64,000 bases of DNA from an uncultured cyanobacterium. Lineage in GTDB: Bacteria > Cyanobacteriota > Cyanobacteriia > PCC-6307 > Cyanobiaceae. Positions 6,967 through 20,206 of the stretch are shown piece after piece. The notes beneath the pieces are model-generated. The model searched no databases, was not told the DNA's origin, and saw nothing but the letters and a program-made list of their open reading frames with translations. Where the stretch lies: positions 97,237 to 161,236 of the forward strand of contig CAVONQ010000006.1 of NCBI GenBank assembly GCA_963697335.1. Direction: 5' to 3'. How positions within the stretch are numbered: position 1 is the stretch's first letter; each line of letters opens with the position of its first letter. Position numbers and translations under genes: made by a program.

Positions 6967-8835
6967 ATGCAAGACGAGCGTTGTCCCATCGTGGTGTGGG
7001 GTGGGGGAAGCGGCGGCGTGGCGGCCGCGCTCCAGGCGGCCCGCGCCGGCAGTGCCACCCTGCTGCTCACCCCGGGGGGCTGGCTGGGAGGCATGGTGAG
7101 CGCCGCGGGGGTGTGCTGCCCTGATGGGAACGAGCTCAGCCCCTGGCAGAGCGGCCTCTGGGGGGCCCTGCTGCGGGAGTTGGCTCGACGCGAGCCCGGC
7201 GGGCTCGACCACAACTGGGTGAGCTGCTTCGGCTACCGGCCCGCCACTGCCGAGGCGATCCTGCGCCACTGGGTGGCCAGCACGGAGGGCCTCACCTGGT
7301 GGCCCTGTTGCCGCCTGAGGCAGGTGGATCGCCAGGGTGATCGCATCAGCCGGCTGCTGGTGGAGCGCTCTGGCCCTGGGGGCCCTGATGGCGCGAGCGC
7401 CCCTGCGGACACCGTGGCGCTCCATCCCGAGCTGGTGATTGATGGCAGTGACCGCGGCGAGCTGTTGGCCCTGGCCTCGGCCGGCTTCCGCCTCGGCTGG
7501 GAGGAGCAGGAGCTCTGGCAGGAGCCCAGTGCGCCGTCGCGGCAGCGCCTCAGCAGCGAACCCTTCTTCCAGGCCCAGCCCGTGCAGTCGCCCACCTGGG
7601 TGGCAATGGGCCGCCTGCGCGCGCAACAGGGGTGTCCCGCCGGCAAGAACAGCCTGCCGCCACCCTTCGCCGGTGCCACCAGCCGCTTCGGCCTGGAGCG
7701 CACCCTCACCTATGGCCGCCTGCCCGGCGACCTGGTGATGTTGAACTGGCCCCTGCAGGGCAACGACTGGCACGGCCAGGGCGACTGGCCCAGCCAGCTG
7801 GAGCGGGCCTTCAGCCTTGAGGCGGCCTCAGATCCCTGCGCCCAGGGGGAACTCGAGCAGGCGATGCAGGCCAACAGCCTCGCCTTTGCCGCCGCCCTCG
7901 AGGAGGCCAGCGAGGGCTGGCTGCAGCTGGCCGAGGTGTTTCCCCAGCACCCCGGCAGCGCTGACCTGGCGGGGCCGTCGCCCCTGGCCCTGATGCCCTA
8001 CTGGCGCGAGGGCCGCCGGCTCAAGGGGCTGACCACGGTGGTGGAGCAGCAGCTGCTGCCCCAGGCCGAGGGCGCCTCCATCGCCCCCCTGCCCTGGCGG
8101 CAGGGCCGCATGGAGTCGATCGCCGTGGGCAACTACGCCAACGACCACCACTACCCAGGTCCCGACTGGCCCCTGGCCCCGAAGAGCTGCCGCTGGGGTG
8201 GGCGCTGGAGCGGCACCCCCTTCTGCATGCCCTACGGCGCCCTGGTGAGCGCCGACACGGTGAACCTGTTGGCGGCCGACAAGGCCAGCAGCGTGAGCCA
8301 CATGGCCAATGGCGCCACCCGCCTGCAGCCCCTGGTGCTCAACGTGGGCCAGGCCGCAGGCCTGGCGGCGGCCCTGTGCCTGCGGCTGGGCTGCAGGCCG
8401 GCGGAGCTACCGGTGTTGCAGTTGCAGCAGGCTCTGGTGCAGGACCCCCTGGCGCCGTCTGGCCCCCTGCCCCTGTGGGATACCCCCTGGCACCACCCTC
8501 ACTGGCGGCAGCGCCAGCTGGCGGCCCTGGCGGATCCGGCCCTGGTGGGCGTCGACGGTGCCCTGGAGCGGGGTGGTCGGGCCGAGCTCGGAGCGGATCT
8601 GGATCCCCACCAGGCGCCGACCGAGCCCCACGAGCAGACCTGGTCTGGCCTGTTGACCCCAACCGGCGACGGGGCTTTTGTGCTGGAGCAGGGGAGCAGC
8701 CGCTGGCCCGTGATCACCCTGGAGCCGGCCCTGCATGCCTGGTTGCAGCAGATGAGCGGGCCCCGCCAGCTCAGCCTGGTGGGTTGCGCCAACCCCTGGG
8801 GACCCTGGCTGCGGGTCTCCAGGCTGGCCCACTGA
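6967..8835 (+). CDS. FAD-dependent oxidoreductase
   Basis: VWGGGSGGVAAALQAAR Rossmann motif, PYWREGRR, SHMANGATRLQP. Confidence 0.8.
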   Translation: MQDERCPIVVWGGGSGGVAAALQAARAGSATLLLTPGGWLGGMVSAAGVCCPDGNELSPWQSGLWGALLRELARREPGGLDHNWVSCFGYRPATAEAILRHWVASTEGLTWWPCCRLRQVDRQGDRISRLLVERSGPGGPDGASAPADTVALHPELVIDGSDRGELLALASAGFRLGWEEQELWQEPSAPSRQRLSSEPFFQAQPVQSPTWVAMGRLRAQQGCPAGKNSLPPPFAGATSRFGLERTLTYGRLPGDLVMLNWPLQGNDWHGQGDWPSQLERAFSLEAASDPCAQGELEQAMQANSLAFAAALEEASEGWLQLAEVFPQHPGSADLAGPSPLALMPYWREGRRLKGLTTVVEQQLLPQAEGASIAPLPWRQGRMESIAVGNYANDHHYPGPDWPLAPKSCRWGGRWSGTPFCMPYGALVSADTVNLLAADKASSVSHMANGATRLQPLVLNVGQAAGLAAALCLRLGCRPAELPVLQLQQALVQDPLAPSGPLPLWDTPWHHPHWRQRQLAALADPALVGVDGALERGGRAELGADLDPHQAPTEPHEQTWSGLLTPTGDGAFVLEQGSSRWPVITLEPALHAWLQQMSGPRQLSLVGCANPWGPWLRVSRLAH

Positions 8836-10830
8836 TCAGGTTCTGGCGGTCAGGCGCAGCTGGTCGCGCAGTGGATCCACCAGCTGCACCTCCACCACCA
8901 GGGAGTCGCCCGGCTGGGCCCCCGGGGGACACTCCGCCGCCAGCTCCATCGCCAGCTCCTCGAGATGGAGCAGGCCCAGGCCGTCCTGGGGCCGGAGCCA
9001 GCGCAGGAAAACCGACTCCCACTGCTCGCTGCGATGGGCTTCGAACCACACCTGCTGCCAGTGGCGTTGATCGTCACGACTGATCTGGATGCCCTGGCGG
9101 ATCGGCGCCTCGATCGCCTGGAGCACCTCCTGCAGGGCCTCGGCATCGAGGGGGGGCTCCCCCTGCTGCTGGGCCCAGAGCTGGCGCTGCACCAGCAGAT
9201 CGCCATAGCGGCGGATCGGGGAGGTGGCCTGGGCGTAGGCGTCAAGGCCGAGGCTGAAGTGCGGGCTCGGCTGGGTGCCCGTGTGCCCGCGGCTGAGGCA
9301 GCGCTTGAGGGCGGCATGGCGCACCGGGCCAGCAGGGAGGGCCTTGAGCTCGGCGTCGGGCGGCAGCTCGGCTGGCAGCTGGCTGCGGTAGGGCAGGGCC
9401 AGCCCGTGCTCCTGCCCGTAGCCGGCCACCACGGCGCCGGCCAGGATCATGGCCTCGGCCACCAGCAGCCGGGACGGCCCGGGCTCGGTGATCTCCAGCT
9501 GGGGCTCGCCGTCAGACACCCGGATGCGGCCTTCCGGCTGGTCCATCAGCAGCGCCCCCCGGGCCAGCCTCCACTGGCGGCGCCGCTGCAGCAGGACATG
9601 CAGGTCGCTGAGGTCCGGGTCCTCCGGTGGCGCCAGCTCGATCAGCTCATCGGCGTCGGCATAGCTGAGCCGGTAGGCGGGCCGCACCCAGCTGCGCAGC
9701 AGGCGGGTGCTGGCCACGGCCCCCTCCTCGGTGAGCTCCACCCCCAGGCTCCAGGCAGCATTGCGGCAGCCGGCCCGCAGGCTGAGGGGCCCGGTGGCCA
9801 GGGCCGTGGGGAACATCGGCAGGGTGCCGCTGGCCAGGTAGAGGCTGCTGCCGCGGCGCCGGGCTTCCAGGTCCAGCGGTGACCCCGGGGCCACCAGCCG
9901 ACCCGGGTCTGCCACATGGATCCACAGGCGCAGGCCGCCCTCCGGCCGGCGTTCCAGGGCGAGGCCGTCGTCGATGTCCCGGGTGTCGGGGTCGTCGATG
10001 GTCACGCAGTGCTGGTGGGTGAGGTCCAGGCGCTGCTCATCGCCGGGCCGGGGCTCGGCGGCCTGGGCGATCAACCGCTCGGCTTCTGCCTCCAGCGCAG
10101 CGCTGAAACCCTGCTGCCAGCTGCTGGTCTGCAGGGAGGGCAGGCGGTGGCGGTCCCAGTGGCCCAGGTCCACCAGCAGATGGCGAATGCCGCCGCCATC
10201 GGCGCTGCAGCGCGCCGTGTGCAGGGCCCGGGCCAGCTCCACAGGCAGCGGGGTGTCCTGCTCGCCGCTGGCCCAGGCCAGCAGCAGATCGAGTTCAGCC
10301 TGGTGCTCCGGCGCCAGCTCCTGGCGCTGGATCGGAGTCCGCCGCCGCAGGGCGTCATGCCACTGGGCCTGGCGCTGCTGCTGCCGGGCCAGGCGATGGC
10401 GCTCCTGCCGCAGGCGGCGCAGATCGTCGAAGGGACGGGCACTGATGCCCTGCTGGCGGCTGCGGAACCAGAGCTGGGGGCCCTGGAGCCACTGCCAGCA
10501 GGCGGCCATCACCGGGGGATCACTGCTGGAGGCCACCAGTTCGGCCCAGTCGTGGAAGGTCCAGAGGCCCTGGTCTTCGCTGAGCAGCAGCCAGGCGGCG
10601 GCGAAATCGCGGGGGCGAGGCAGGCTCTGCGCCACCTCGGCCTCGCTGAAGCCCCAGGGGGCAACCCCCAGCCGTGGCGGCGCTGAGGCAGCACCGGTGA
10701 GGGGAAGGATCAACTCCACCTGGCGGCGGGGGAGCTGCTGCTGGCGGTGGTGGAAGCCCACGCTGAGCTCCAGCCTGGATCCCTGCGCCTGGAGCACCAC
10801 GGCGAGGTGAGCACCCCGCTCGTCGCTCAC
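8836..10830 (-). CDS. rnb: Ribonuclease II/R family exoribonuclease
   Basis: TIDDPDTRDIDD, HVADP, TSPIRRYGDL. Confidence 0.9.
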   Translation of the reverse strand: MSDERGAHLAVVLQAQGSRLELSVGFHHRQQQLPRRQVELILPLTGAASAPPRLGVAPWGFSEAEVAQSLPRPRDFAAAWLLLSEDQGLWTFHDWAELVASSSDPPVMAACWQWLQGPQLWFRSRQQGISARPFDDLRRLRQERHRLARQQQRQAQWHDALRRRTPIQRQELAPEHQAELDLLLAWASGEQDTPLPVELARALHTARCSADGGGIRHLLVDLGHWDRHRLPSLQTSSWQQGFSAALEAEAERLIAQAAEPRPGDEQRLDLTHQHCVTIDDPDTRDIDDGLALERRPEGGLRLWIHVADPGRLVAPGSPLDLEARRRGSSLYLASGTLPMFPTALATGPLSLRAGCRNAAWSLGVELTEEGAVASTRLLRSWVRPAYRLSYADADELIELAPPEDPDLSDLHVLLQRRRQWRLARGALLMDQPEGRIRVSDGEPQLEITEPGPSRLLVAEAMILAGAVVAGYGQEHGLALPYRSQLPAELPPDAELKALPAGPVRHAALKRCLSRGHTGTQPSPHFSLGLDAYAQATSPIRRYGDLLVQRQLWAQQQGEPPLDAEALQEVLQAIEAPIRQGIQISRDDQRHWQQVWFEAHRSEQWESVFLRWLRPQDGLGLLHLEELAMELAAECPPGAQPGDSLVVEVQLVDPLRDQLRLTART

Positions 10831-13997: not shown

Positions 13998-15362
13998 TCA
14001 GCCCTGGGCTGGTTCGGCATCGGACCGGCGCAACACGGCCAGGGTTTCCACGTGGCTCGTCTGGGGAAAGAAATCCAGTGGCTGCAGCTGATCAAGGGCA
14101 TAGACCTTGCCCTCCAGCAGCAGCGCCAGATCCCGAGCCAGGGTGGCCGGGTCGCAGCTGAGATACAGGAGCGTGGCGGGGGGCCGGCTGCGCAGTGCCT
14201 CCAGCACCGCCGGCTCCAGACCCTTGCGGGGAGGATCGAGAAACACCGCCTGGCAGCGCTCCAGCCAGGCGGGCAGCAGCTCAGCCACCGCCCCGGCCTC
14301 AAAGCTCGCCACGGCCTCCAGGCCGTTGGCCGCCGCATTTTGCTCAGCCAGCCGCACCGCCTCGGGATTGCGCTCCAGCCCATGGACGCGCCAGCCGGAG
14401 CGCGCCAATGGCAGGCCGAAGGTACCGATGCCGCAGTAGGCGTCGATCAGCAGGCCTGGTGGTTGGCTGGCCAGGGCGTTTTGCAGCAGGGGCACCACCC
14501 GTTCGGCCTGGGGGGTGTTCACCTGAAAGAAGGTGTCGGAGGCGATGCGCAGCTCCAGGCCGGCAAAACGCTCGACCAGCCAGCTGCGGCCCGCCACCAG
14601 TTCCGTGGTGGGGCCCAGCAGGGTGTTGGTGGGGAGGGGCTGCAGGTTGAGCGTCACGCCCACCAGCTGCGGCCAGCGGTTCAGCCAGCGGTCGGCCCAG
14701 CGGGGCAGCTGATCCAGCTCCAAGTGGCTGCTCACCAGGGTGAGCAGCAGCTCTCCGGTGTGGTGCCCCAGTCGCAGGGCCAGATGGCGCAGGCCGCCAC
14801 CGGTCTCCAGCTCCCGGTCCACCGGCCAGCCGGCGTCGGCGAGATCGGCCTTGAGCGGGGCGATCAGGGCATCGAGCCGCGGATCGAGCACCGGGCAGTG
14901 GTTCATGTTCACGATCCGGTGGGTGCCGCGGCGGTAGTAGCCCGCCCGCACCAGACCATCATCTCGGCGTTCCAGCGGAATGATCGCCCGGTTGCGGTAG
15001 CCCAGGTTGGCCATCGCGGCCAGGGCTGGAGCCACGCTGATCTGCAGCCCCCCCAGGCGTTCCAGGGCCTGCTGAACGCGGCTGCCCTTCCAGGCCAGCT
15101 CCGCCCCATCCTCCAGGTGTTGCAGGCTGCAGCCCCCACAGCGCTGGGCCAGGATGCACGGGGGCTGGCGGCGTTCGGGGGAGGGTTCGATCACGCCCAC
15201 CAGATCGGCGATCCAGTGGCGCTTGGCCCGATGCACCAGTTGCACAGCCACCACCTCGCCGGGCAGGGCACCAGGCACAAAACAGGCCATGCCATCCACC
15301 CGGCCCACGCCCTGGCCGTCATGGGTGAGACCATCCACCCGGAGATCCACCCTTTGGCCCAT
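13998..15362 (-). CDS. rlmD: 23S rRNA (uracil(1939)-C5)-methyltransferase
   Basis: TRAM domain, C..CGGC FeS motif, FFQVN, DAYCGIG, DPPRKG, SCDPATLARD. Confidence 0.93.
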   Translation of the reverse strand: MGQRVDLRVDGLTHDGQGVGRVDGMACFVPGALPGEVVAVQLVHRAKRHWIADLVGVIEPSPERRQPPCILAQRCGGCSLQHLEDGAELAWKGSRVQQALERLGGLQISVAPALAAMANLGYRNRAIIPLERRDDGLVRAGYYRRGTHRIVNMNHCPVLDPRLDALIAPLKADLADAGWPVDRELETGGGLRHLALRLGHHTGELLLTLVSSHLELDQLPRWADRWLNRWPQLVGVTLNLQPLPTNTLLGPTTELVAGRSWLVERFAGLELRIASDTFFQVNTPQAERVVPLLQNALASQPPGLLIDAYCGIGTFGLPLARSGWRVHGLERNPEAVRLAEQNAAANGLEAVASFEAGAVAELLPAWLERCQAVFLDPPRKGLEPAVLEALRSRPPATLLYLSCDPATLARDLALLLEGKVYALDQLQPLDFFPQTSHVETLAVLRRSDAEPAQG

Positions 15363-15481
15363 CGTTGCGCTCGTGATCAGGCCTCGACCCTAGGTCGTGC
15401 AAAGGGGCGTTACACCTTGAGTCCTGATGCCGGCTGGGCGCGCTGGAGTCGATAGAGTGGCGCTTGCATCTGGTCGCTGCA

Positions 15482-15976
15482 ATGAGCGTCGTTCGGGATC
15501 TGATCCTTCAGGCAGACGACCAGCTTCGCTATCCAAGCGGCGGCGAGCTGCGCTCCATGGTGGACTACCTCAGCGGCGGCGCCCGGCGCCTGGCTGTGGT
15601 GCGCTCCCTCACCGACAACGAAAAGAAGATCGTCGACGAAGCCGCCAAGCAACTGTTCGGCCGCAAGCCCGAGTATGTGGCCCCCGGCGGCAATGCCTAC
15701 GGCCAGAAGCAGCGGGCCCAGTGCCTGCGCGATTACAGCTGGTATCTGCGGCTGGTCACCTACGGGGTGCTGGCCGGCAGCACCGAACTGATCCAGCAGA
15801 TCGGCCTGGTGGGAGCCCGCGAGATGTACAACAGCCTCGGCGTGCCCATGCCGGGCATGGTCGAGGCGATGCGCACGATGAAGGATGCCGCCCTCTCCCT
15901 GCTCTCCACCGACCAGGCCGATCTGGCCGGTCCCTACTTCGACTACCTGATCCAGGGGATGCAGACCCCCACCTGA
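15482..15976 (+). CDS. apcD: Allophycocyanin subunit alpha-B
   Basis: MSVVRDLILQADDQLRYPS, CLRDYSWYLRLVTYG, REMYNSLGVP. Confidence 0.93.
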   Translation: MSVVRDLILQADDQLRYPSGGELRSMVDYLSGGARRLAVVRSLTDNEKKIVDEAAKQLFGRKPEYVAPGGNAYGQKQRAQCLRDYSWYLRLVTYGVLAGSTELIQQIGLVGAREMYNSLGVPMPGMVEAMRTMKDAALSLLSTDQADLAGPYFDYLIQGMQTPT

Positions 15977-16017
15977 AGCTTCCCGCCTCAGGCTCTCAGG
16001 AGGTCACCGTCTCCCTT

Positions 16018-16057
16018 GCCCCACGCCCTGCAGCGCCCTGCAAGACGTGGGGTTTTT
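16018..16057 (+). terminator. Intrinsic terminator after apcD
   Basis: CCCCACG(16019-25)/CGTGGGG(16046-52) stem with inner TGCAG/CTGCA pairing, followed by TTTTT. Confidence 0.65.
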
Positions 16058-16416
16058 GCTCGCTGGTGCTGGCTGCCCTTGCCTGCTGAGCCCCTGGGAC
16101 GAGCGAAAATGATCCAGAAGGTCTCAGCTTGGTCTCGCTACAGGTCCCTTCTTGAGTCTCATCAGCGAGAGCCGAGTCTCGCCCAGGCGCGCTCGGGCTC
16201 CGTCCCGCCGGGCGGTTTCGGGAGCCAGCGAGTAGGGGAGCACTGGCAGCCCGGGCGGCCTCAAGCTTGCGGCCAGGCCAGGGAATCCCTGGGCGCATTG
16301 CGTTCATCAGTCTCAGCAATCCCGTTTGGGTCTGGAGACAGGTCTAACTAGCAGCCCCAGATGAGACTTGCTTGACGACACAGGGGCCTGGTGACGACAA
16401 GCACCGCCAGCGGTCT

Positions 16417-16445
16417 TGCGTACCTGCATTTGACACAGGTACGCA
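16417..16445. repeat. Perfect 10-9-10 inverted repeat TGCGTACCTG-catttgaca-CAGGTACGCA
   Basis: Read directly from the sequence. Confidence 0.85.
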
Positions 16446-17072
16446 GATGAACTGTCTTCAGTGCTACCAGTCTTTTTGAATGGCGCAGTCGGCTCTTGGA
16501 CACAGTGCCAGGCTGTCTCTGGACATGGCATGCGGCAGGTTTGATGCCTTTCTCCTGCATGGCGCCGACTCCCAGCACAGCCCACCAGGTCTCACGGGAG
16601 TTGGCGGCAAGCAATTCGAAGCAGAACGACGACTGACTCTTGAAAGCGAGGAGCTCAATCAAGGCTGGATTCTCCAGGCTCGGTACCCCGGATGCCGCAG
16701 GTGAAAACACTGAAAAACCATGGTCCCGGATTTCTCTCTCGGGTCCCATGCTGTGGCCAGTTTATGGTCCCGCCCGAGACAAGCGAGAACGTCGCAAGGC
16801 GCCCGAGCTGCTCCCCCGTTCCATTCGCGGGGTGGGCACACCCAATCAGGCGCAACTGCGGCTGCCGCCATGACGATCGCGAGGACGGACCATCTGGACA
16901 GGCGCCCTGTCCCTGCGCCAATGGAGTCCATGGCCTAAGTCGAGATCGCGGAGCGAAACACAAGGCTCGGCAGTCTCGACTTGGTCGCATTAACAGACTC
17001 GATCTGTGGCGCAGTCGCGCCATGTGAGACGGTGCTTGCGTTGCCCGCCCTCGCCAGTGCCGGGCGTGGGGA

Positions 17073-18275
17073 TCAGCGCGTGCGGTAGAGCTCCTTGAGC
17101 AGCTGGTAGGCCTCGTTGAGGCGACGCATCAGATCATCCGATCCTCCTGCGTCCGGATGGTGGGCCAGGGCCATCTCGCGGTAGGCCTCGCGGATCTGGG
17201 GCAAGGTGAGTCGTTCGCCGGGATCCGTGGGCAGCTCCAGCAACTTCAGGGCCCCCAGCAGGGTCATGGTGTGCTCCAGGCTCTGGAACGAGGTGCCGCT
17301 GCGGCGCTGGCGGAAACGGTGCACAAACCGACGGATCAACGTGGGGATGCGGAGCTCGAGGGTGGCACTGCTGAAGGGGTCTTCCAGCACACCGGCCATC
17401 ACCATCACCTTGGCGAAGCTGGCTGGTCCCTCAGGCCAGGACGGAGCCACCAGGCGCATCACCTCCTGGCCAAGCGACCAGGTGAACAGACGCCCCTCGC
17501 TCTGGTCACTCTGGGGCCAGATGTCCTGGGCGATCCAGAGCATCGCGGCCTCGAGCACCGGCGCCTGGGCGGGCTGGGCATAGAGCTCCTGCCAGTGCTG
17601 ATCCGCCCTGGATAAGGCCAGGCTGAGGCGTTCAGCCGACACCTGGGGCATCGGCTCCAGGCGGGTGGGGAGCTCCCTGGTCTGGGGGTCGAGGCTTCGG
17701 CGCAGTTGGTCACTGCGGCGTTGCACGAATCCCGGCAGGTCGATGCCGCGCTTGGCCGGGCGGGAGCCTGGGCTGCTGGACTCAGGGCCAACCCCCTCCT
17801 CTGGGGAGGACTGACTCTGGCCTGACAGCTCCGAGAGGGGATCCACGAGCAGCTCTCCCGGTCGGTTACCGGCCAGCAGCACAAGGGACCCGCATTCGTC
17901 GAAATCGCCGTTCTGCTCCGGCAATGGCGAAGAGGATCCAGCCTCTGCAGATGGCGGCTTGGACAGCCCCGGGTGGTGACCTGCCTGGGAAGGCTGCTCC
18001 AGCGGAGCTGGATCGATGGCTGACTGGCGGCCGGAGCGAACCTCTGGCGGTACGGCGTCCGCCCCAAGCTCAAGCTGATGCGGCTCCAGGGATGGGGAGC
18101 CAAGGGGATCGACCTGCTCGCCCTCAGGACCGAGCAGGTGGTGCAGAAGGCGCTCCACCACCGCGCCGCGGCTGCGGCAGCCGAGTTCTGCTTTGAGCAC
18201 GTCAATGCGACTCACCAGCTCGGCTGAGAGCCGCAGGCTGACCTGCTTGAAGTCCCTGGGGTCGTCGTCAGCCAT
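17073..18275 (-). CDS. Ribbon-helix-helix (CopG-like) protein with C-terminal DnaJ J-domain
   Basis: N-term QVSLRLSAELVSRIDVLKAELGCRSRGAVVERLL (RHH); C-term IREAYREMALAHHPDAGGSDDLMRRLNEAY (J-domain, HPD). Confidence 0.85.
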   Translation of the reverse strand: MADDDPRDFKQVSLRLSAELVSRIDVLKAELGCRSRGAVVERLLHHLLGPEGEQVDPLGSPSLEPHQLELGADAVPPEVRSGRQSAIDPAPLEQPSQAGHHPGLSKPPSAEAGSSSPLPEQNGDFDECGSLVLLAGNRPGELLVDPLSELSGQSQSSPEEGVGPESSSPGSRPAKRGIDLPGFVQRRSDQLRRSLDPQTRELPTRLEPMPQVSAERLSLALSRADQHWQELYAQPAQAPVLEAAMLWIAQDIWPQSDQSEGRLFTWSLGQEVMRLVAPSWPEGPASFAKVMVMAGVLEDPFSSATLELRIPTLIRRFVHRFRQRRSGTSFQSLEHTMTLLGALKLLELPTDPGERLTLPQIREAYREMALAHHPDAGGSDDLMRRLNEAYQLLKELYRTR

Positions 18276-18299: not shown

Positions 18300-19967
18300 T
18301 CACCGCTGCATCAACTCACGCATGATCCGTCGCTGGGCGTCAAGGGCCTCCTGGTAGCGATCGAGCAGATCGGGATTCAGCTTGGTTGCGGCCTGTTCCC
18401 TGGTCAACGCCGCTCCAGCTGGGCGGTTGGGGGCTGGGCCGGGGCGTGCGGCCTGGGGCGAGGGCATGACGCGGGCGGGCGGCGGGTTGACTGCCCTTGG
18501 TGGAGCGGCCGCCCTGGGAGCCGGGGGAACGGGGCGGGGAGCGGGAGCCGCCGGCCCGGGGGCAGCAGTGGCTGGGGTGGAAGCGGCCTGGGCCAGTTGG
18601 CGTGCCTGCACCATGGCGAGCTGGGTGGTGGGTACCACACTCAGCAGGTGACCTGGAGTGGCATCAGCGGGGTAGACGAGGCTGACGCGCACCGGATAGC
18701 CACTCCCCCCTCCAGGCAGATTCAGGGTGGCCAGGGAGAGACTCTCGCCCGAGCGCATGCCCACATGGACCTCCTGCAGTCCCTGGGGTGTGCGGATCTG
18801 GATCGAGCCGCGGAAAGCGGTGAAGGTGTTGACACCTGGGATCGTGGGGTGACTCAGCACCAGCTCGTAGGGGCCGGAACCTTTCAGGTTGAGATCCACA
18901 TCGAAGCGCACGCCGTAGGTGCCGACGTTGTCGAGGGAGGAATCGACCATGCGGCTGGCCAGTTGGTTCACCTGCACATCACGGGTGCCGAAATGATGGC
19001 GGTCGGTGCTGGTGAGCGGCACATGCAGGGGGCCTTCCCGCTTCAGGTCATGGGTGATCGAGGCCTGGTATTCATCCCCCAGGGCCACCCCTCCGACCCG
19101 GGAAAACACCCGGCGGTTCTTGATCGCAGCCACCTGATTGAGGTACACGCGCCCGGGCGCCAGGCGGCGCTGATCCAGCACCCTGACCAGATCTGCATCG
19201 CTGTAGGGATTGCTGGCGGCCACCACCGCCATCTGGAATGGCCCGTTGCTGTGTCCTCGCAGCAGGGCATTGGCGATCCCGAGGGCCGGCAGCTGGGTGC
19301 GGAACAGCACCACGCGGCTGCGGGCAGGAATGGTGATCGTCTCGCTGAGACCACGGTCCAGACCACCCCTGAGCATCTGGACCGCAGTGGCATCCCCGGG
19401 GCCGGTGTTCCAGGGCCGGACACCCAGGGGCTTCACACCCATCAGATTGTTGGCCAGGTAGGGCGCCTGGAAGCTGTTGCGAACAGCACCCCGATCAAAG
19501 CTGATCTGAACGGGTCGTTGACCTGGGTTGATCAGGATCAGCCCGAGGGTGAGCTCGGTGCGGCGCTCACCGGGGCGGATCTGCTTGCGGTAATCAGGAA
19601 AATACTTGTGGTGCATGTGCACCCCGAAGTCACCGTTGAAGGTGAACTCGGCGTTCTTCAGGGCCGCGCCGTTTTCGGCCGCGTAGGTCACCCCGGCTTC
19701 AGTGGTGATCAGGATGCCCGGACCCTCCACCTCTTCGGGCTGGTTGGAGTGCAGCACAGGCACGCTGTTGAAGCTGCCATTGAGGGCCCTGGCCCGTTGA
19801 CCGGCCATCAGGGCCACGGCCGCTTGGGCGGGTTGGGCCGGGACGCCAATCGTGGCGATGGCCACCACCAAGACCATGCGACAGAGGCCGCCTGGGTTTG
19901 GCAGCAGCCGGGAAGCAACCAACGATCTCAATCGTCTAAGGGGGGAAAGTGCTGGGGTGCGGTGCAC
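18300..19967 (-). CDS. DUF3370 family exported protein
   Basis: VPVLHSNQPEEVEGPGIL, GTYGVRFDV, YPADATPGHLL, Pro/Ala-rich tail; start uncertain. Confidence 0.75.
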   Translation of the reverse strand: MHRTPALSPLRRLRSLVASRLLPNPGGLCRMVLVVAIATIGVPAQPAQAAVALMAGQRARALNGSFNSVPVLHSNQPEEVEGPGILITTEAGVTYAAENGAALKNAEFTFNGDFGVHMHHKYFPDYRKQIRPGERRTELTLGLILINPGQRPVQISFDRGAVRNSFQAPYLANNLMGVKPLGVRPWNTGPGDATAVQMLRGGLDRGLSETITIPARSRVVLFRTQLPALGIANALLRGHSNGPFQMAVVAASNPYSDADLVRVLDQRRLAPGRVYLNQVAAIKNRRVFSRVGGVALGDEYQASITHDLKREGPLHVPLTSTDRHHFGTRDVQVNQLASRMVDSSLDNVGTYGVRFDVDLNLKGSGPYELVLSHPTIPGVNTFTAFRGSIQIRTPQGLQEVHVGMRSGESLSLATLNLPGGGSGYPVRVSLVYPADATPGHLLSVVPTTQLAMVQARQLAQAASTPATAAPGPAAPAPRPVPPAPRAAAPPRAVNPPPARVMPSPQAARPGPAPNRPAGAALTREQAATKLNPDLLDRYQEALDAQRRIMRELMQR

Positions 19968-20206
19968 TTGGACGGGCCTGCGCCGCAGAGAATTCCTTTA
20001 AGAGCAGACGCCGTACAGGGAGCAACCATGCACTCGAGGGAAATGCGAGGACGTCCGCGGCGCTGCATCAGACCGACGGGGCCTTGATCACCCTACCGGA
20101 GACGATCCCACTCCCTTCAGCCCCAGCTCCCCCGGGGAAAGGATCGAGGGCCCGCTCTCAGACGGGCCGTGCCACCGCTAGAACCTTGTTCTACGACTCC
20201 ACTTCC

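Follow-up and report, generated by a model that had tools for sequence, protein, structure and literature searches.

The 64-kb stretch of DNA analyzed here, referred to as the window, belongs to G000, a 2.58-Mb assembly (18 contigs, 98.8% complete) of an uncultured cyanobacterium of the family Cyanobiaceae, and contains at positions 15977 to 17072 a noncoding gap that is conserved between two convergent genes. This gap carries arrays of a short half-site on both sides of a palindrome present in a single copy in the genome, and we tentatively regard it as a protein-bound element of the chromosome terminus. It is flanked by the 3′ ends of both neighbors, a phycobilisome-family (allophycocyanin-like) gene on the plus strand (15464 to 15976; Pfam Phycobilisome, E value of 5.8e-59) and a gene on the minus strand (17073 to 18275), which encodes a 400-residue protein combining a ribbon-helix-helix (RHH) domain with a J domain (RHH–J protein) according to Pfam, an alignment of orthologs, and an AlphaFold model. 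A DUF3370 gene, also on the minus strand (18300 to 19967; Pfam DUF3370, E value of 2.4e-86), lies 24 bp upstream of the RHH–J start; it is probably the operon partner of the RHH–J gene and may belong to the same system. The order phycobiliprotein gene, gap, RHH–J gene, and DUF3370 gene is kept in the genus, in which the gap spans 741 to 1,188 bp across 20 relatives. The left neighbor, which scored 198 bits against the NCBIfam ApcA-like model and fell below the cutoff of that model, is of the phycobilisome family in high-GC relatives and is replaced by RlmD or pheT in low-GC relatives.

The preliminary description of this DNA had portrayed the gap as noncoding and poorer in GC than its surroundings, and both features were upheld. 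The GC fraction was 0.57 to 0.63 within the gap (16200 to 16950) versus about 0.68 to 0.74 in the surrounding DNA. An all-against-all comparison of stop-to-stop open reading frames (ORFs) of at least 25 residues in 20 orthologous gaps revealed none common to more than two other loci. The Rfam 15 covariance models gave zero matches at an E value of ≤1 between positions 14000 and 20000, and neither a tRNA nor a sigma-70-like promoter was found in the gap. A hairpin resembling an intrinsic terminator, followed by a run of T residues (16035 to 16063, plus strand; stem at 16035 to 16053, then TTTTGC), ends the transcript of the left gene. Given this terminator, the remainder of the gap is not just the 3′ untranslated region of the left gene. 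The two ends of the gap (16005 to 16032 and 17021 to 17071) contain inverted copies of the blocks CACCGTCTC and CCCCACGCCC in swapped order, which may serve the two convergent genes as terminators.

The motif GTCTC/GAGAC occurs 13 times in the gap, from 16009 to 17030. The copies are at the positions that had been named beforehand, including two that are 11 bp apart (16121 and 16132), and the palindromic sequences TGAGTCTCA and CGAGTCTCG were confirmed at 16153 and 16173, respectively. Counted as GTCT(C)/(G)AGAC, the half-sites form a left array (16009 to 16367), with members at 16009, 16043, 16121, 16132, 16156, 16176, 16310, 16330, 16336, 16342, and 16364, and a right array (16515 to 17030), with members at 16515, 16589, 16777, 16973, 16995, and 17027. 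That such a number exceeds chance, as the preliminary description had proposed, was established by 2,000 dinucleotide shuffles of the gap's own sequence, which contained 3.1 ± 1.7 copies with a maximum of 11, none reaching 13. Sliding 1,100-bp windows over G000 likewise identified the gap as the densest of the genome (runner-up, 7 copies), the motif cluster appearing as one 1.1-kb peak against a total of 2,164 copies, or 0.84 per kb. GTCTC/GAGAC is depleted outside the gap, for which codon usage or restriction avoidance could be the cause: the window contains 67 copies versus 120 ± 11 in dinucleotide shuffles, and 54 of these fall in the remaining 62.9 kb. Because the 5-mer is avoided elsewhere, its fold enrichment against the genome is an overstatement, and the appropriate comparison is with shuffles of the gap's own sequence.

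The enrichment is conserved in the absence of extensive sequence conservation, G012 being the only relative that aligns to the gap as DNA (622 bp, 67% identical). Each of the 20 gaps with definable limits in the genus contains 4.8 to 11.9 copies of GTCTC/GAGAC per kb in an arbitrary mix of strands (e.g., 7:0, 1:9, and 9:4), and an unbiased k-mer comparison returned GTCTCA/TGAGAC as the top 6-mer, with 85 occurrences observed versus 3.0 expected from genome frequencies. At the family level, we counted the motif within 450 bp of the core on each side in 52 loci, 41 of high GC and 11 of low GC (28 to 37%). The former contained 225 copies versus 110.6 ± 9.2 in shuffles and the latter 43 copies versus 14.4 ± 3.2. 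Since high- and low-GC loci are enriched alike, composition does not explain the array, which, as anticipated, co-occurs with RHH–J orthologs in the 20 genus gaps and in the family loci. The motif itself had to be redefined, the half-site being better written GTCT(C/T) than as the strict 5-mer. The density of half-sites is elevated at −600 to −50 and at +150 to +550 relative to the center of the palindrome and is low over the core, which the half-sites flank for about 0.4 to 0.5 kb on each side. A motif akin to FtsK-orienting polar sequences (KOPS) was considered and rejected, as the orientation of GTCTC shows no polarity about the palindrome.

Helical phasing of the half-sites, which had been proposed from a few copies in the window, extends to the family. 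The spacing of GTCT/AGAC pairs within ±450 bp of the core was compared in the 52 loci to that in 100 dinucleotide shuffles. AGAC-N9-GTCT was observed 19 times in high-GC loci (shuffle mean, 0.5) and 20 times in low-GC loci (0.1). For GTCT-N6-AGAC and GTCT-N7-AGAC, the counts were 11 and 10 in high-GC loci (about 0.5 each) and 8 and 7 in low-GC loci (about 0.1 to 0.2 each), and for GTCT-N18-AGAC they were 15 (0.6) and 7 (0.2), respectively. Direct pairs behaved similarly, with 13 (0.5) and 5 (0.2) occurrences of GTCT-N8-GTCT and 17 (0.6) and 6 (0.1) of GTCT-N19-GTCT. The centers of neighboring half-sites are therefore 10 to 13 bp apart, approximately one helical turn, whatever their orientation, and those of second neighbors are 22 to 25 bp apart. 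Aligned instances share the recurring unit GTCTyATATrAGAC–N9–GTCT... In the 400 kb of G147 that were examined, 6 of 19 such spaced pairs fell inside the 0.8-kb gap. The arrays of the window obey these spacings less strictly and contain the direct repeats 11 bp apart at 16121 and 16132, a tight GTCT-GG-AGAC-AG-GTCT cluster (16330 to 16345), and two GTCT-N18-AGAC pairs (16342/16364 and 16973/16995). Short half-sites phased in either orientation strongly suggest, at the level of sequence, cooperative binding by small symmetric dimers.

The preliminary description missed the core of the locus, which consists of a one-per-genome palindrome and oriented TGGACA repeats. The palindrome, GCGTACCTG-N9-CAGGTACGC at 16418 to 16444, lies in a 30-nucleotide mid-gap stretch, the only part of the gap that is conserved in several relatives. 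Its consensus is GCGTAnCTG-N9-CAGnTACGC (more narrowly, GCGTAyCTG-N9-CAGrTACGC), and it is present in 19 of the 20 genus gaps. G000 and four relatives each contain exactly one copy and no match to a reversed control pattern. When up to two mismatches were allowed, the palindrome was matched in 152 of 201 family genomes, versus about 23 for the reversed control, and the exact pattern was found in none of 75 cyanobacterial genomes outside the family. Of 30 family loci that were retrieved, 29 have the RHH–J gene next to the palindrome and one ends too early, and wherever the locus extends far enough, it is the 3′ end of this gene that faces the palindrome. In genera that escaped the pattern, diverged forms occupy the same place, such as GAGTAACTG...CAGTTACGC, GCATAACTG...CAGTTATGC with a compensatory pair, and the shorter GTACTG-N9-CAGTAC.

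The arms of the palindrome evolve as symmetric partners. Position 6 changes on both sides (C:G in 24, T:A in 12, and A:T in 4 of 48 rows), and the 2 to 4 pairs flanking the arms also stay complementary. Transition mismatches comprised 39 G·U-type and 39 A·C-type cells. The asymmetric center (TGTCT...) is inverted in the clade of the window (16427 to 16435; loci L009 to L011) compared to most other genomes, with no change in the orientation of either the arms or the TGGACA repeats. The equal numbers of G·U and A·C mismatches and the inverted center indicate that the symmetry is one of duplex DNA and not of an RNA hairpin formed by one strand. In the window, the palindrome is followed on the RHH–J side by two direct repeats (TGGACA-N17-TGGACA; 16497 to 16525, plus strand, with copies at 16497 and 16520). 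Two or three such copies are found 50 to 110 bp from the palindrome on that side in the family, with a spacing of N17-18 in high-GC genomes and of N5 (an 11-bp period) in low-GC genomes. At least two TGGAC were present at +30 to +140 in 41 of 53 loci versus none of 53 in the mirror window, and TGGACA-N15-19-TGGACA occurs only three times in G000. A second conserved hairpin with a T run after the palindrome was considered as a terminator and dropped, the inverted repeat being present in only 5 of 53 loci and the automated test for a T-rich tail being negative (mean of 2.0 T in 9 nucleotides).

The two domains that had been attributed to the RHH–J protein were both recovered. The RHH domain (residues 12 to 48; 18132 to 18242, minus strand) matched Pfam RHH_1 (PF01402, CopG family) with 26.3 bits against a cutoff of 20.5, and its model contains helices at residues 18 to 31 and 36 to 48 with predicted local distance difference test (pLDDT) scores of 88 to 94 and matches the RHH fold of NikR (Z score of 5.5 over 46 residues). 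The J domain (residues 337 to 400; 17076 to 17267, minus strand), identified by alignment, profile, and fold match, remained below the Pfam DnaJ cutoff (PF00226, residues 357 to 394; 25.4 versus 27.8 bits). A profile built from 34 orthologs matched Tim14 (E value of 2e-5) and the T-antigen J domain (E value of 7.8e-5), and H373, P374, and D375 of the HPD motif are invariant in all 34. The AlphaFold model confirmed the J-domain fold, superimposing on 2guz_B with a Z score of 9.9 and a root mean square deviation of 1.6 Å over 62 residues; fold matches included Tim16/Tim14 (Z score of 9.9) and polyomavirus T antigen (Z score of 7.5). In the alignment, the RHH domain is followed by an acidic disordered linker of variable length, the motifs FDE.GALVL and GIDLPGFV, a strongly conserved helical domain (residues about 210 to 325; 17301 to 17648, minus strand), and the J domain, with pLDDT scores above 90 across all three folded parts.

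The central helical domain gave no clear match in fold searches of the whole model (Foldseek and VIA, PDB), which returned only the J and RHH domains. It was found in six of six family genomes and in none of 75 other cyanobacteria, accounts for only 49 cluster representatives in a set of 1.84 billion proteins, and had zero matches among 50,697 phage and 72,556 plasmid records. The RHH–J protein was present in all 24 relatives searched, with one weak and one partial match. The combination of RHH, central, and J domains is a new protein architecture, and this protein is a candidate trans-acting factor for the site.

The location of the locus opposite dnaN, which the preliminary description had proposed, was upheld. 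In 13 genomes of one or two contigs, representing at least eight genus-level groups, the palindrome lies at 43 to 52% of the chromosome from dnaN; these distances are exact for G012 (44.4%) and G147 (50.0%) and were derived from rounded genome sizes for the other eleven (G013, G002, G019, G057, G067, G041, G051, G047, G056, G060, and G082), the palindrome of G082 (about 860.3 kb) being placed by estimation from the coordinate of the RHH–J gene. The contig of G147 has 1,657,990 bp, half of which is 828,995, with dnaN at 174 and the palindrome at 829,204 to 829,224. Over 200 kb on each side of the site, the AT skew of this genome is −0.043 (left) and +0.024 (right), with the minimum of the cumulative AT skew at 849 kb and the maximum of the keto skew at 836 kb, compared to 829.2 kb for the site. 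In G012, which belongs to the genus of the window, the AT skew is −0.044 to the left and +0.011 to the right, and its sign changes in the 1,199- to 1,239-kb bins that hold the site (1,219,457), the geometric antipode of dnaN being 155 kb further. The sign change is thus within about 20 kb of the site in two genomes. If cyanobacteria follow the usual rule that the leading strand is T rich, the switch in AT skew indicates that replication forks converge at the site and places it at the terminus. Genomes differ, even inside the genus, in how the locus is oriented with respect to dnaN, which fits inversions pivoting on the terminus.

A published reanalysis of vesicle DNA from a Prochlorococcus strain (PMC10913375) reports that 92,377 of 1,368,548 reads map to a "ter" window (826,000 to 832,000), compared to a median of 0 at 200 random places, and locates the highest peak directly at the dif site, which the passages concerned take from the literature without a sequence. 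If that record and G147 are collinear, the center of this 6-kb window (829,000) would be about 200 bp from the G147 palindrome. Four public sequencing runs were compared with the G147 locus (L078, positions 8301 to 10100). In X16, a library obtained in 2014 by multiple displacement amplification (MDA), single contigs had word depths of 1,667 to 1,878 over L078 9157 to 9423, which includes the palindrome (9205 to 9225), compared with flanking depths of 339 (left) and 191 (right). An X16 contig with a word depth of 1,878 joins position 9423 back to 9102 with no microhomology, forming a 322-bp circle or tandem that contains the palindrome; this joint may be an MDA chimera and was not used as evidence. 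Raw RNA reads of X22 and X23 covered L078 9021 to 9260, palindrome included, in one direction at a depth of 45 to 78, 5 to 10 times that of the flanks. Depth dropped to 9 to 18 past 9320, with sharp molecule ends at 9137, 9255, 9284, and 8984. The strand of this RNA is ambiguous, as two flanking genes give conflicting hints. Numerous RNA reads cover an 82-residue ORF (L078 8957 to 9205, plus strand), the stop codon of which falls within the left arm of the palindrome in its shortened form; this ORF is also present in L076 and L077, these three loci of a small low-GC lineage being the only ones to contain it, and it is absent from G000. A search of the main text of Steglich 2008 (PMC2518516) for coordinates 8288 to 8293 gave nothing.

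The anatomy of the site, its conservation, its uniqueness, its position at the terminus, and the phyletic range that it has in common with the RHH–J protein are direct observations. Site and protein match in address as well as in range, both being restricted to the family. We propose, with a confidence that stops somewhat short of considering it probable, that the locus is a terminus element bound by protein and that its arrays are most likely occupied by the adjacent RHH–J protein. The protein is the likely array binder by adjacency, by shared phyletic range, and by analogy with the known roles of RHH domains, and the same adjacency and range, together with the known roles of J domains, suggest that it may recruit DnaK/Hsp70. 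RHH dimers would coat the site by cooperative binding to the phased half-sites, and the J domain would then stimulate DnaK/Hsp70 locally. The resulting Hsp70 action would remodel or clear a complex at the end of replication, whether in the fusion of forks or termination or in the resolution or segregation of sister termini.

Several observations weigh against this proposal. Within the window, the arrays are mostly direct repeats, and GTCT-N6/7-AGAC and AGAC-N9-GTCT are absent as exact pairs. The β-strand of the RHH domain varies by lineage (KQVSLRL, RSIQLKL, and RRISVDL) and the GTCT half-site is constant, which is not as a simple read-out model predicts; a protein other than RHH–J could own the arrays. 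The arms of the palindrome lack GTCT, so that the array binder need not bind the palindrome. As gene order is inherited, the antipodal position in 13 genomes counts as approximately a single observation. The large-scale orientation of genes around the site on contig C6 is not clearly convergent, and GC skew was flat with no usable switch on C6, in G147, and in G012; only AT and keto skew showed one. The X16 depths are contig means from an amplified library and thus lend weak support, all the more so as palindromes can be overamplified by MDA. Finally, the palindrome region is transcribed in the one strain for which raw RNA reads were available, so that an RNA may play a role.

Among the other explanations, the palindrome could be the core of a recombination site resembling dif, with inverted recombinase-binding arms around a crossover region of 5 to 9 bp, TGGACA and GTCT serving as accessory or arm-type sites, and RHH–J acting as an accessory factor. 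The enzyme would be a divergent tyrosine recombinase (408 residues; G000 C10:97492-98712, L073:520-1746) that displays the RHxxR...Y signature and is the sole one of G000 besides integrases at contig ends. With versions of about 390 to 440 residues, it belongs to the core genes of the family (100 of 101 genomes, those of 1.6 to 1.7 Mb included) and recurs in 60 of 81 genomes of the class, with about 50% identity in most families. It is a plausible "Xer analogue" with a housekeeping role and makes the dif-like explanation a serious competitor. The occurrence of a single palindrome per genome at the skew switch and its near-perfect inverted arms, with an asymmetric center that flips between clades while the flanks stay fixed, are as expected for such a site. 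Other bacteria's vesicle DNA peaks at dif (PMC10913375), the prediction of dif is reported to have failed in cyanobacteria (0/5; Kono 2011, PMC3025954), and some cyanobacteria are described as devoid of Xer and as carrying simple tyrosine recombinases of a distinct "Cyan" subgroup (PMC8138268). An FtsK_SpoIIIE domain was not found in G000, although a control search in Synechococcus elongatus likewise gave no match; the accessory sites would provide resolution selectivity in cells without FtsK, as at cer and psi. However, the recombinase is class-wide and the palindrome confined to the family (exact pattern), and the recombinase gene lies 240 to 290 kb from the site in G012, G002, and G019. For these two reasons we rank this explanation second and consider it unlikely. 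In addition, neither the palindrome nor TGGACA repeats were found beside the recombinase gene, and the site (27 to 31 bp, with 9-bp invariant arms and a 9-bp center, or 10-7-10 or 11-5-11 with extensions) departs from the 11-6-11 geometry of dif and bears no apparent likeness to dif sequences. The recombinase scored 26.1 bits against Pfam Phage_integrase, below the cutoff of 27.1, with a nonsignificant match to Arm-DNA-bind_2 (E value of 0.022) and only weak named matches to XerA (18.5 bits) and XerS (16.5 bits), and the X16 joint ends at L078 9102 and 9423, away from the palindrome. Two other tyrosine-recombinase matches in G000, C2:1405-1905 and C16:3437-3937, have equal scores and ORF lengths and are located at contig ends, where a repeated mobile element probably breaks the assembly.

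A small noncoding RNA gene, or a conserved 3′ RNA element, of which the palindrome would form the main hairpin and TGGACA and GTCT the transcription factor sites, has a lower probability still. Complementarity is kept through two-sided changes (pair 29-59, C:G in 15 rows and U:A in 11; pair 36-52, C:G in 24, U:A in 12, and A:U in 4), the terminator of the left gene is well upstream, and the X22 and X23 reads reveal an abundant transcript with sharp ends over the G147 palindrome. This signal nevertheless overlaps the lineage-only 82-residue ORF and may be its mRNA. The equal numbers of G·U and A·C mismatches favor neither strand, the center is inverted in one clade, the second hairpin is conserved in sequence in only 5 of 53 loci, and no Rfam match or sigma-70-like promoter was detected; such an RNA would also leave unexplained why phased half-sites extend over about 1 kb, on both strands, and why the locus is at the terminus. 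It is improbable that the arrays are ordinary operator or decoy sites through which RHH–J or another transcription factor controls the neighboring genes, with no chromosome role and with a terminus position owed accidentally to gene order. Most RHH proteins, among them Arc, MetJ, CopG, and NikR, repress transcription and bind short repeats, NikR is the nearest solved RHH by fold and profile, and conserved synteny alone could hold the locus antipodal to dnaN. Yet the site lies between convergent 3′ ends rather than at a promoter, the promoter side of the DUF3370–RHH–J operon has one GTCTC copy (at 20099), the roughly 1 kb of sites with its unique palindrome far exceeds the needs of an operator, and the skew switch of G012 follows the site and not the geometric antipode. 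Hardly any credence is due to a compositional artifact or a functionless relic of a mobile element or plasmid module. The gap does have a lower GC content than its surroundings, and avoidance of GTCTC elsewhere inflates its fold enrichment, but the shuffles of the gap and the counts in relatives already contradict this explanation: none of the 2,000 shuffles reached the observed count, enrichment and spacing rules hold from 28% to 68% GC, the locus is syntenic family-wide, and the central domain is without a match in phage or plasmid records. The remaining probability belongs to explanations that we have not yet thought of.

Literature searches, with the supplements of the cited papers left aside, returned no account of the locus, of a dif sequence in picocyanobacteria, or of any RHH–J protein. 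Few phototrophs are as abundant as Prochlorococcus and Synechococcus, and the locus bears on the question of how replication ends in cyanobacteria and how their sister chromosomes are resolved or segregated. The protein-bound terminus element proposed here offers a sequence-defined and testable candidate for a terminus site, together with a candidate trans-acting protein whose architecture would tie Hsp70 to one specific chromosomal address. It may also explain at the nucleotide scale the published terminus peak of Prochlorococcus vesicle DNA, if G147 matches that replicon. In a bolder and speculative version, which we deem unlikely as a whole, the unique palindrome would be the missing cyanobacterial dif or termination point, and RHH–J polymerized on the arrays would load Hsp70 to license or drive fork fusion, dimer resolution, and the release of termini in cells devoid of FtsK, the site thereby being the source of the vesicle terminus DNA.

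In layout, the locus resembles partition systems. As in ParR–parC of plasmid R1, omega, and ParG, an RHH gene adjoins repeats phased at about one helical turn, and parC also has two repeat blocks around a central core. The adaptor ParR recruits ParM, an ATPase of the actin/Hsp70 fold, and DnaK is the partner proposed here. The half-sites of the present locus are, however, 4 to 6 bp long and extend in mixed orientation over about 1 kb, whereas parC consists of contiguous 11-bp iterons, and the core is a unique palindrome instead of a promoter. Unlike ParMRC, the locus is chromosomal and at the terminus, and its recruiting module is a J domain. A ParM or ParA partner was not found in the operon among the neighbors scanned, which were DUF3370 upstream and then a sigma factor. 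MatP–matS similarly combines an RHH-containing protein with terminus-specific palindromic sites, but matS sites span hundreds of kilobases and the present locus is confined to 1 kb; MatP also lacks a J domain, whereas Pfam reports RHH_1 and DnaJ, and only these, on the RHH–J protein. With XerCD–dif, cer, and psi, the locus shares a single chromosomal copy at the skew switch, a core with inverted arms, accessory-like repeats, and a conserved tyrosine recombinase encoded in the genome. It differs from XerCD–dif in the geometry and sequence of the core, in that FtsK was not found, and in a recombinase that is divergent and of wider range than the site. The fusion of a J domain to DNA binding is known from polyomavirus large T antigen and E. 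coli CbpA. The DNA-binding modules are unrelated, being an origin-binding domain and helicase or a nonspecific curved-DNA-binding module in these two proteins and an RHH domain in the protein described here.

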